A DNA stretch of 64,000 nt from Phallusia mammillata. Taxonomy: Eukaryota. Below, one piece after another: positions 25,912-30,579 of this stretch; positions within the stretch are counted from its first letter, which is position 1, and each line of letters starts with the position of its first letter. The position numbers and the translations under genes are program-made. The notes beneath the pieces were generated by a model, which was not told where the DNA came from, did not search any database, and saw nothing but the letters and a program-made list of their open reading frames with translations. The stretch spans positions 18,104,001 through 18,168,000 of the forward strand of contig OZ281499.1 in the NCBI GenBank assembly GCA_965637545.1, in the 5' to 3' direction.

Positions 25912-27637
25912 CTAAATTAGTAATTTACTGGATGTGTAGGCTTTGACGAATATAAGAACCGGGTGGACAAAGCTAAGAATACAAACTGCCAAAAGAAGGT
26001 AATTCACAACAGAAAACAAATTCGAGTCTTCAATGGACAGAAACAACGCGTATTGTAGAAGTGAAAAAAGTCCTGCAGCAAAAACCGTAATTCCGTAAAG
26101 CTGACCAAAGTGAATCAATGGAAAGTTTTTGGCTAAAAAATTTGACAAACTCCCGAAAAGAAACGAGCGAAAGAAAAGCATTGTCACTAGGGAACCATAA
26201 ACGCTATTAGTTAATACTGTAACGTTCAGGATTATTTCAATGGATCCGGTGATGAACATGGTGACAAATAGACCACGTAGTTTTCGAGTATTTTGGCTGA
26301 TATTTGAATCACCGCTGTACTTTTCTACTACATCGCATATTACACCGTTGATAGGTGCTGTCAGGCCGGCAGCAATCAATATGTAACCAAAAAGGTTCGC
26401 AAAAAAGTCAATTCTGTCGGAAGGATGAATCCGACTAACCCATGATATGTAACTGCCAAAGAAAAACACCAAACGCAAACTCCCAATTGACAGAAATATG
26501 AGGTTGGTCCAAAAAAGCGGGGATTTCAAACACGATTTCAAAGACAATTCATTCTCTTCATTTTGTGTCTCGTCTATTGATAATAATTCAATCCCCGGAT
26601 TTGATCTGTCTGTATTGGGCGACCCCGTTTCGACTGAAGAGGTTATTTGAGTTCGTTTTGCAACATGCAGGACATCCAAAATTCCGTATCTACCGACGCT
26701 GCCATCTTTGTCAACTATAATTTTGTTTTTCGGCATCAAGAGAAACGTACGTAACCATGGAAACACACTTATGCAGGCCATGAACTGAAAAACACTTGTA
26801 AGGTGGGTGCCACTGTCGTAGGCCACTTTAATCAGAAAAAAGACCACTACTGCGGAATCGTAAGCACCGGCAAGAAGAAAAAGGTAACCTGACTTATGGT
26901 CGGTTGTCAGGTCGCTTAATTGAACGTTGCTGACTTGGAAATGCAATCCAGATGTTGCAATGAAAATCATGGCTGGGAAAAGTAAACCAGCTGTCTGTGG
27001 TGTCATCACAGCCAGCAACGTCCAGCCACAAGTGTTGAGAAAACATGCAATGCTTCGACTGGTCCATGTTCCGAATTTATCCAATATGTAACCAAATGGT
27101 ACTGAACTAATTGTTTGTGCAGCAATAGCTAATGTAAATACGAGGTTGAATGTCGACTCGTCAGATGAGCATGGTGTCATAGTTCCGTTGCCTGGAAGGA
27201 AAGAGCAGTTAGATGCAAAGTAACCTTCTTGAATGAGGACAAATTGTATGGAAGGCCATCCGTATATAACACCACCTTGTAATAGCACTTCCAGTAATAC
27301 AGTAAAAATGCTTAGTGTATCAAGCATAGTCATTTTTAACTCCAAGTTCTGTTAAAAAAGCCTCTAAAATGGAATTTATCTGAACTATTTTATTTGCGTT
27401 GACAACTTGGCATAACAAAATTAGACTTTTGCACAATCTTATGTATTTTGCTGCAAAATCTTTAGTTTTAATTATATTAAAGTGCTAAATGTAATCCGAA
27501 AATACTTCGCAATAAAATGTTAAGTTGCGCTTCATTAAAAAAATCAAAATGATTTGCAAAGCAACAGTACTTTGTAGAACGTATGGACTGAACTAAACTC
27601 TTACCATGTTAACTCCATCCTGTTCTAATCTTTGCAT
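25912..27637 (-). CDS. SLC43A3: SLC43A3-like MFS transporter, copy F (intact ORF); exons 27637-27605 and 27348-25912
   Basis: Near-identical inverted paralog of copy B with the same mini exon (MQRLEQDGVNM) and splice sites; the ATG lies in the gypsy TSD. Confidence 0.88.
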
Positions 27638-27797
27638 TGTTTATTTGCGTTTATTTCAATCGAAAATAATAGAATGACGCGTCAAACCAAACGCATAGCA
27701 AACGTGCGCACCAAACGAAAAAGGCAAAACACACGCACAATAGGAAAAAGGCAAACGTCACGCTTTGTAAGAAATAAATAAGCGACAGGTCGCTACA
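27638..27797 (-). repeat. 3' LTR
   Basis: Nearly identical to 31628-31788 except at the terminal ~11 nt and near the other end. Confidence 0.95.
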
Positions 27798-30579
27798 TAA
27801 CCCCCCTCCAGAAGCGAGAAGTTTTCACATTACGCAAGAAAAACACAAAAATCACTGTATTTGTCCAAAAAATGGTTATGTTTTGTTGCACGCTATGTTT
27901 TTTTTTGGGTGGTCTGCCGCGGCGAGGAGTTTGCTCAACAACAACTGGCTGACTCAGGTCAAGATGTGCAGGTTTAAGGCGGTCAATCGATACCACCTTC
28001 TCTTTACCTCCCATGTTTAATGTAAAAGTTTTGTTGGATCGCGCTACCACTTTAAATGGTCCGTCATATGGCTTTGTCAGTGGTGGACGATGTGTGTCTC
28101 TCCGAATGAACACATAGTCACTAGCCGTCAGACTTGGTGGTATTGCTGTTTTGACATTGCCGTGTCTGGACATAGGAGTTGGTAGAAGTTTGTCCACTGC
28201 ATCCCGTAGAGCAGGTAAAACTTGAGAGGGAGCTGATTCATCACGAAAGATGAAATCTCCTGGCACTGCGATTGGGGAGCCATATACGAGCTCTGCTGAA
28301 GATGTCTGTAAATCATCCTTGGGGGCAGTTCGAATGCCTAACATAACACAAGGTAATTCATCAATCCAGTTTGGTCCAGAAAGGCGAGCCATCAAAGCAC
28401 TCTTTAAGTGCCGATGAAATCGTTCAACTAATCCGTTTGATTGAGGGTGAAAGCTTGTGGTGAGATGAAGTTGTATTCCTAGCAATTGGCTTATCGTTGA
28501 CCACAACTGGGACGTGAACTGCGGACCACGATCAGAAGATAGGTGAGCTGGAATTCCAAACCGTGAAATCCAGACCGAAAGGAAAGCTCTGGCACAAGTT
28601 AGAGTTAAGGAATCTGTCATGGGAACTGCTTCTGGCCACCTTGTAAATCTATCTACTATTGTCAGCAGATATGTCTTGCCCTGTGACGGTGGTAAAGGGC
28701 CAACAATGTCAATGTTAACATGTTCAAACCGAGAACGAGGTAATGGGTAATGCACCAGAGTTGATCGAACGTGTGTGTGAATCTTTGATTTCTGGCAAGC
28801 TGTACACTGTTTAACCCATAATCCTACTTGCTGTTTGAGCCCGTGCCACACAAATCTTGAAGCTATTAGCTTGCGCGTCGTGCGTATTGACGGATGTGAC
28901 AAACAGTGAATAATGTTGAATACTTTCTTTTGCCACGAAATCGGTATGATCGGTCGCGGAGTGCCAGTGGAAGTGTCACACAACAGTGTTAAACCAGAGT
29001 TGCCAATAGTTATGTCCTCAAGCTTTAGGTTTGTAACTGCTGTACGATATGATTGCACTTCTTTATCAAGTTGCGCATTTGCAATAGCTTTGTAATCGAA
29101 ATCCAACATCACCTTTTGTAGACTTGAGACAGTTATCCGGGACAATGCGTCAGCGACTTGATTATGTTTTCCTTGGATGTGTCGAACATCAGTGGTGAAT
29201 TCGGATATTGCTGTAAGGTGGCGTTGTTGGCGCGCTGACCATGGATCAGACACTTTTGCAAATGCAAACGTTAACGGTTTGTGGTCAGTAAAAGCAGTAA
29301 AACTGCGCCCTTCAAGAAAGTATCAAAAATGGCGGATTGCCAAATGCAAAGCCAGTAACTCTCTGTCGAACGCGCTGTACTTTGTTTCTGGTGGTCTGAG
29401 ATGCCTTTGTTTCTGGTGGTCTGAGATGCTGAAAAATGCTAATGGCCTCCAGCAACCTCCAATGTTTTGCTCAAGCACAGCACCAACAGCTGACTGCGAC
29501 GCGTCGACCGTCAAGGCGGTTTGTGCCTGAGGTATAGGATGGTGAAGTAGCGTTGCTGCAGCAAGTGCCTTTTTAGCGTTGGTAAATGCTGCAAGCATTG
29601 TGTTGGTCCAAACCAGGTGTTTTGGTTTGCCAGAAAGTGCTTCATACAATGGCATCATGATTTGCGCTGCACCAGGAAGAAATCTGTGATAAAAATTTAT
29701 CATGCCAGCAAATTCTTGTAGGCCCTTAATAGTGGTAGGTTTGGGAAAGCTTTGAATTGCCTTGACTTTGTCAGGTAAGGGTCTGGCACCAAATCTATCC
29801 ACGCGATGGCCGAGAAAATCGATTTCCGTCAGTCCAAACTTACATTTGGCAAGATTAATGACGAGTTCATGGTCAGCTAATTGTTTAAAAAGCTGCTGAA
29901 GATGATTGCGATGTTCGTTAGCTGACTTACTTGCAACCAATATGTCATCAAGGTAAACAAACACGAATTTTAAAGACTGACAAACTGTATCCATCATTCT
30001 TTGAAACGCTTGAGCTGCATTTTTAAGTCCAAAGGGCATACGCAGAAACTCAAAAAGCCCAAACGGCGTTACGACAGCCGTTTTGGAAATGTCTGCTGGC
30101 GCAACGGGTACCTGGTGATATCCTCGAACCAGATCGATTTTAGAAAAAATCTTAGCCCCTGCCAGTCGTGCGGTAAAATCCTGGATATGTGGGATCGAGT
30201 AACGGTCTGGTTGTGTTGCTGCATTAAGGCGCCTGTAATCGCCACAGGGGCGCCATCCACCTGATGTTTTGGGAACCATATGAAGTGGAGACGACCATGG
30301 ACTGGATGAACGGCGGACTATTCCCAACTCCATCATTTTACTGAATTCTGCCTTTGCAATGGCTAGTTTTTCGGGTGGAAGTCGTCTTGCCCGAGAGTGC
30401 ACTGGTAGGCCGCTTGTGGGAATGTGATGTTCCACACCATGTTTTGGCATTACTGCAGAAAAATGTGGCGTAGTTATGTCCGGAAACTTTGCCAAAAGTT
30501 TGACATAACTTGATTGTGCGTTGCTAATTGCGTTTAGGCGAGGTGCCGCTTGGTTTGTCTTGCCTATGGTACCAGACAT
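27793..30579 (-). pseudogene. gypsy pol (RT, RNase H, integrase) with one nonsense codon
   Basis: YLDD, VDAS, HCLSH...CTAC, VDIVG, SDRG and NGLVERFH motifs. TGA at 29323-29325 in HF*YFLEGR (probably CGA to TGA); 21-nt in-frame insertion near 29406-29430; frameshift between protease and RT near 30570. Confidence 0.93.

Follow-up and report, generated by a model that had tools for sequence, protein, structure and literature searches.

The analysed stretch of Phallusia mammillata DNA (64,000 nucleotides; hereafter the window) is part of a 27-Mb contig; the genome as a whole measures 240 Mb. Around the gene termed copy F, SLC43A3-like genes stand in a tandem array, each with its coding region in one large exon. 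Full-length open frames are present in eight array copies, namely copies F and B and the loci L033–L038, the latter located just upstream of the window; many further copies, including copy J, are broken. Three copies inside the window are central to the analysis:

25912..27348, minus strand: large exon of the SLC43A3-like copy F; acceptor at 27349, conserved methionine at 27333, 473 amino acids from that methionine, frame open
3979..5702, plus strand: sister copy B, with empty site and intact frame
41754..43373, minus strand: sister copy J, with empty site and broken frame

The predicted protein of copy F matches human ENBT1/SLC43A3 (PDB 9l38) over its whole length (E 9.8e-50) and, more weakly, SLC43A2/LAT4 (PDB 9jbs; E 8.4e-17), and contains the Pfam domain MFS_1. 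Its closest named relative is an SLC43A3-like entry labelled Phallusia mammillata (P0002), which matches another locus of the same genome (L043) at 99.6% over 475 residues. By full-length similarity to SLC43A3/ENBT1 and by its predicted MFS fold, the copy F family belongs to SLC43. The array genes differ from ENBT1 and LAT4 in that their coding region lies in a single large exon, that they have expanded in tandem with many broken copies, and that their role as transporters of nucleobases or neutral amino acids is putative.

A Ty3/Gypsy element in the 5' region of copy F

The 5' region of copy F is interrupted by an LTR retrotransposon, which is composed and bordered as follows:

27638..31788, minus strand: Ty3/Gypsy LTR retrotransposon with CsRn1-type features, 4151 bp, pol region broken
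31789..31792, minus strand: left ATGC target copy, whose ATG opens two codons and then meets a stop inside the LTR
31628..31788, minus strand: 5' LTR, 161 bp, with terminal inverted repeats and AATAAA at 31644–31639
31616..31625, minus strand: PBS-like TGGTGACCCC, two bases inside the 5' LTR, tRNA-Trp type pattern
30893..31582, minus strand: gag frame, 229 codons, with DUF7041 and a CX2HX9CX3C motif
27793..30995, minus strand: pol in three pieces, with a protease frame (DTG), an RT–RNase H frame and an integrase frame
29323..30585, minus strand: RT–RNase H frame, with a stop at 29325–29323 and a 25-bp tandem duplication at 29428/29403
27793..29322, minus strand: integrase frame, the third piece of pol
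27638..27797, minus strand: 3' LTR, 160 bp, preceded by a purine tract, AATAAA at 27655–27650
27641..27647, minus strand: altered end of the 3' LTR, specific to this locus; terminal inverted repeat lost, second AATAAA at 27645–27640
27634..27637, minus strand: right ATGC target copy, with the "rebuilt" ATG directly behind the 3' LTR

The preliminary description of the window had placed the element in a duplicated ATGC of copy F and in the orientation of the gene, and both statements hold: the two ATGC copies lie at 31792–31789 and 27637–27634, and element and gene are on the minus strand. The empty site that it had reported for two sister copies (GAGATA-ATGC-AAAGAT) was located at 3973 on the plus strand (B) and at 43364 on the minus strand (J). 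A third empty site is present in L033, upstream of the window, and contigs of two sequencing runs (X5 and X6) contain the empty site as a loose end at 27638. The upstream C of this loose end, common to F and J, is ancestral and thus no mark of an empty F allele. Because dating by LTR divergence failed to order the events, the F-specificity of the insertion rests on the empty sites; the two LTRs of the element differ by 1 substitution in 152 (95% range 0.0002–0.037), a range that overlaps with that of the silent divergence between F and B (8 of 332; 0.010–0.047). The insertion in copy F is real, young, of a known clade type, and situated in a redundant gene array.

The element combines the two LTRs, target-site duplication (TSD), PBS, purine tract and pol order (protease–RT–RNase H–integrase) of Ty3/Gypsy retrotransposons, with the Pfam domains RVT_1, RT_RNaseH_2, Integrase_H2C2 and rve in this sequence and a DTG motif upstream of them. 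CsRn1-like elements are marked by the Gag motif CX2HX9CX3C, a PBS of tRNA-Trp type and a 4-bp TSD, according to the available part of PMC2582038. The Gag motif was found by regular expression at gag residues 199–216, and 4-bp TSDs flank both the copy F element and all six other family sites with two readable flanks. The first 10 bases of the PBS agree with the tRNA-Trp type pattern, as printed in PMC2582038 rather than taken from the tRNA-Trp of this genome. Further likenesses to the members of the clade described in the same portion of that source (CsRn1, PwRn1 and Anopheles AgCR) are the TGT...ACA ends (here at the 5' LTR), the DTG protease, the PR-RT-RH-IN order, and the overlap of gag and protease frames; AgCR3, with 4177 bp, 146-bp LTRs and the TSD AATG, is also close in size. 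By contrast, the copy F element has an altered 3' LTR end and a broken pol, with a frame break between protease and RT in addition to the tandem duplication and the stop listed above. It thus carries CsRn1-type features, the clade being named by motifs rather than by a tree.

A search of the genome with the LTR yielded 34 matches. Matching TSDs are also present in three further full-length copies, whose paired LTRs are 0–4 substitutions apart, which indicates that the family moved recently. Among the target sites of 13 other independent insertions, position 1 is A or T in every case and position 3 is G or C in 11; this A/T-x-G/C-T bias contrasts with the elements of PMC2582038, for which no target preference was seen. 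For seven of the 13 sites, the reading rests on a single flank, and duplicated or paired LTRs were merged; left out of the count were 4 of the 34 LTR matches, the loci L020, L024, L025 and L027–L030 (truncated or too diverged), and L019 and L026 (no clear site). An ATG begins at 1.8% of the positions in the window, whereas under the base preference of the family itself (a simple matrix from the 13 sites) ATG-first targets are expected at about 5–11%, so that insertions of this family will commonly leave an ATG behind the 3' LTR. One of the 13 other sites, that of a solo LTR with ATGT on both sides (L008), is indeed ATG-first.

Seven bases at the end of the 3' LTR (27647–27641) are unlike those of the 5' LTR and unlike those of all 22 other LTR copies with an alignable end. 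They create a second AATAAA two bases before the target ATG, in addition to the LTR's own AATAAA 12 bases before it. In the LTRs of animal Metaviridae, the conserved polyadenylation motif is AATAAA, which some clades carry close to the 3' end (PMC3601003). The 12-mer that spans the altered bases is found again 251 bp downstream (27400–27389); a match of this kind was obtained in 15 of 3000 simulated neighbourhoods, in a test chosen after the match had been seen. The altered end is likely the product of a repair event that copied nearby sequence; local duplication of the 8 bases next to it is a further possibility.

The target ATG and the native upstream region

Three further features bear on the question of where copy F begins:

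27605..27637, minus strand: candidate 11-codon exon that keeps the frame of the large exon, with donor-like ATG|GTAAGA (27604); only F, B and L033 have a consensus donor
31789..32892, minus strand: displaced native upstream region; block 32036–31789 conserved in the paralogs
31897..31900, minus strand: site of an F-only net 33-bp deletion, which removes a conserved donor-like GGTAAGC (copy B 3862–3868)

The element had been described as inserted exactly on the start codon of an intact SLC43 gene, with the TSD rebuilding the ATG behind the 3' LTR. The local structure agrees with that account: ATGC is present directly behind the LTR, and it is followed by a splice-donor-like GTAAGA at 27604 and by an intact exon with 478 open codons from 27348. 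However, such rebuilding is automatic for any TSD, and the start-codon premise is poorly supported, since a conserved methionine lies at 27333, 304 bp downstream, and the five older intact paralogs have no in-frame consensus donor. In an alignment of 16 proteins with identities down to 29%, 15 share this methionine, which lies 15 nt after the acceptor, in a single column. Nine of the aligned sequences are database proteins, which start at the conserved methionine or one residue earlier; these are products of gene callers, which could miss a small first exon, and the conservation of the methionine is independent of that. The alignment with human ENBT1 begins with ENBT1 residue 10, which corresponds to residue 6 counted from Met 27333.

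Only in the three youngest copies (F, B and L033) would a GTRAG donor join the target ATG in frame to the large exon; because they differ from each other by a dS of only 0.02–0.07, an exon common to them says little. Such a donor is found in none of the five older intact paralogs (L034–L038). In L034, the target ATG opens seven codons followed by a stop, with no in-frame GT; in L035, the frame is kept only via GTGTTT; and the target site of L038 is not alignable. A block homologous to the target region was not found in L036 and L037, and the broken copy J reads GTAAAA at the donor position. The target ATG is therefore probably not the start codon of the family. ATGCAA is kept in both L034 and L035, so the motif itself might matter.

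The native upstream region is displaced above the element, as stated in the preliminary description, with homology at 31789–32892. In copy B, a donor-like GGTAAGC is located 116 nt upstream of the target (GT at 3863), within a conserved block in which 134 of 270 columns are invariant. GGTAAG is kept at this place in B, L033, J, L034 and L038 and is replaced by GGTAAAC in L035; in F alone, it is deleted. The deletion near 31900 may have occurred before or after the insertion. It was omitted from the preliminary description, as were the altered 3' LTR end and the broken pol.

If GGTAAGC marks the end of the native first exon, the target ATG would come to lie in the first intron. The site is 406 nt before the acceptor, and this distance fits the median of about 455 bp for first exon plus intron given for Ciona in PMC11155486, which counts in favour of the upstream donor. 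GGTAAG is matched equally by the donor of the 11-codon exon (F, B and L033), and the hexamer occurs only 13 times on the two strands of the window; the upstream GGTAAGC could instead be a protein-binding motif. Further upstream, an F-only substitution creates AAA|GTAAGC at 32141. Private substitutions in the upstream region amount to nine in F, against five and five, numbers too small to interpret.

State and transcription of copy F

The dN/dS between F and B is 0.32 (8 and 8 changes), and the changes private to F (5 replacement and 2 silent) show no significant excess of replacements over those of B and L033 together (9 replacement, 11 silent; p 0.38, Fisher test). According to the preliminary description, copy F has either been promoter-swapped to the LTR or was silenced too recently to decay. 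The separation of the gene from its upstream region stands, and the open frame, the dN/dS and the Fisher test fit the "too recent" part of the statement; its premise of a rebuilt start is weak. The either/or also overlooks that a spliced leader might be added in trans at the acceptor, that an F allele lacking the insertion might exist, and that seven other intact paralogs make copy F redundant. Open frame and dN/dS are consistent with recent silencing as well as with continued use of F and cannot tell the two apart.

None of 15 sequencing runs is recorded as RNA (X1–X4 are guessed to be RNA), and contigs of such runs show presence, not absence. Run X1 contains a 968-nt contig (26154–27121) with two differences from F, in a segment where F and B differ at 15 positions and L033 at 42, and run X2 contains two shorter contigs that are identical to F across F-private sites. 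Both runs stem from the same study, with a depth of 5–6, and their F-type contigs reach no further than 27121. Among the contigs listed for X1 and X2, none carries letters of the B or L033 type, and none lies over the candidate exon or the LTR (gap 27122–28100). These contigs suggest that an F-type copy, with or without the element, is probably transcribed in some animals. The X5 and X6 contigs listed have a non-F letter at the F-private positions 26592, 26842, 26875, 27003, 27029, 27212 and 27318 and at a 3-bp indel at 26580, which is a weak hint that F is not present in every animal; a contig across the junction may exist beyond those listed.

Explanations for the insertion and its significance

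The best explanation, with a probability of roughly 0.5, is a Gypsy insertion in the 5' region of one of eight intact SLC43A3-like copies, in which the ATGC likely belongs to a non-coding first intron or outron and the redundant copy has likely been cut off from its promoter. On this view, a spare copy received the element in its non-coding leader, and the ATGC hit there conforms to the target preference of the family. The native first exon would end at the conserved GGTAAGC and be spliced, or the RNA trans-spliced, to the acceptor 15 nt before the conserved methionine. RNA started at F's native promoter would be read into the element and would there encounter the AATAAA signals at both LTR ends, 4 kb short of the coding exon. 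Copy F on this haplotype would then be largely silent, with little cost, and not yet old enough for decay to show, and the altered LTR end would be a repair scar, copied from 250 bp downstream.

It is conceivable, although doubtful, that the element itself drives copy F, with RNA from the 3' LTR or from read-through reaching the acceptor at 27349 either by cis-splicing from 27604, which would use the rebuilt ATG and add 17 residues, or by spliced-leader trans-splicing, which would give the normal protein. The shared orientation, the donor-like site 33 nt behind the LTR, the in-frame ATG in an A-rich context, the intact frame and the F-type contigs of X1 and X2 all accord with such a takeover. 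In Ciona, moreover, trans-splicing affects about half of the genes; it mostly uses the first acceptor and is more frequent where donors are weak (PMC4691747, PMC11155486; see also PMC3074122). However, Ciona is another ascidian, the two AATAAA signals stand 12 and 2 nt before the ATG, no read or contig among those listed joins LTR and gene, and the seven other intact copies remove any need for expression from the element. Distinctly improbable is that F, B and L033 recently gained an 11-codon first exon that truly begins at the target ATG, and that the insertion cut this exon off from its promoter and silenced F, in line with the second branch of the preliminary either/or. The in-frame exon with its GGTAAG donor in all three youngest copies and the retention of ATGCAA in L034 and L035 speak for a gained exon, but the close relationship of F, B and L033 deprives their agreement of weight, the exon with consensus donor is absent from all five older intact paralogs, and a conserved methionine follows downstream.

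Continued transcription of copy F from its native promoter, with the whole element removed within a 4.8-kb intron or outron, is very unlikely. The F-only AAA|GTAAGC at 32141 might supply a donor, acceptor and frame are intact, and F-type contigs exist, but F has lost the conserved donor by deletion, the candidate replacement sits about 240 nt farther upstream, perhaps ahead of the transcription start, and three sense AATAAA signals intervene between promoter and acceptor. That copy F or its junction is an assembly artefact is scarcely credible: although near-identical tandem copies are hard to assemble and the 3' LTR end is unlike all others, the 4-bp duplication is exact on both sides, the flanks are collinear, and F-private letters recur in contigs of two independent runs.

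LTRs are known to have been exapted in mammals and plants as alternative promoters that are spliced into a host gene. Copy F resembles these cases in that a sense LTR immediately precedes a donor-like site and the coding exon behind it is intact, but it differs in that the element is full-length rather than a solo LTR, that the gene is one of eight copies, that the host lineage trans-splices, and that the arrangement is known from sequence alone. Among the papers listed in a search of the literature, none dealt with this locus, with an SLC43 array of ascidians or, in any tunicate, with a start codon made by a TSD. We consider it unlikely that copy F is an LTR-driven gene in the making, whose native first donor was lost and 3' LTR end rewritten after the insertion, and which is expressed from the element via the TSD-made ATG and the donor at 27604 or via spliced-leader trans-splicing.

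Under the best explanation, the locus is an ordinary young insertion in a birth-and-death transporter array and useful only as a marker. If copy F were expressed from the element, the locus would constitute a clean natural experiment, in which three near-identical copies with and without the element can be told apart by their private letters. In that case, trans-splicing could remove the foreign 5' end of the transcript and make promoter swaps seamless in ascidians, and the locus could serve to test whether trans-splicing lowers the cost of transposon promoter swaps.

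Insertions at the donor-like site and in front of ATG

The 945-bp insert at L062 (5268-4315, minus strand), upstream of the intact paralog L038, has inverted ends that match in part and is flanked on either side by GGGTAAGC. The insert is a second element, and what its 8-bp duplication has copied is the conserved donor-like site (GGTAAGC) itself. Part of this arrangement is also found at 40432-40503 (plus strand) of the window. Separately, an F-only substitution created a donor-like AAA|GTAAGC at 32141 (minus strand), 350 nt above the Gypsy insertion of copy F. A solo LTR of the same family as that Gypsy element (L008; C6, 9468955-9469106) is flanked on either side by ATGT, which places another ATG immediately behind an LTR.

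Other features in the window

17248-22369 (minus): presumably a second Gypsy-like element, different from that of copy F, judging by motifs; its pol frame continues into an apparently nested stretch that looks like an RT of a different kind
689-1270 (minus): gag-like fragment, presumed from motifs
46453-47250 (minus): 265-codon open frame bearing a cysteine-rich motif
11749-12547: DNA resembling the 46453-47250 open-frame region

Expansion and divergence of SLC43A3-like genes

The SLC43A3-like single-coding-exon genes have undergone a large expansion (53 matches in the searched genome), on which there was no paper among those listed in a literature search. Many copies are broken, and head-to-head pairs are frequent.

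SLC43A3-like genes in the searched genome
C6, 18.06-18.17 Mb: array with at least eight intact copies
C1, C2, C3 and C5: further clusters (L041-L060)

When 25880-27640 of the window was compared with the sister copies B and J and the upstream paralog L033, the differences among copies were patchy; L033 differs from copy F at 42 places within 26154-27121 and at few beyond. Such patchiness among F, B, L033, and J is the pattern expected from gene conversion.
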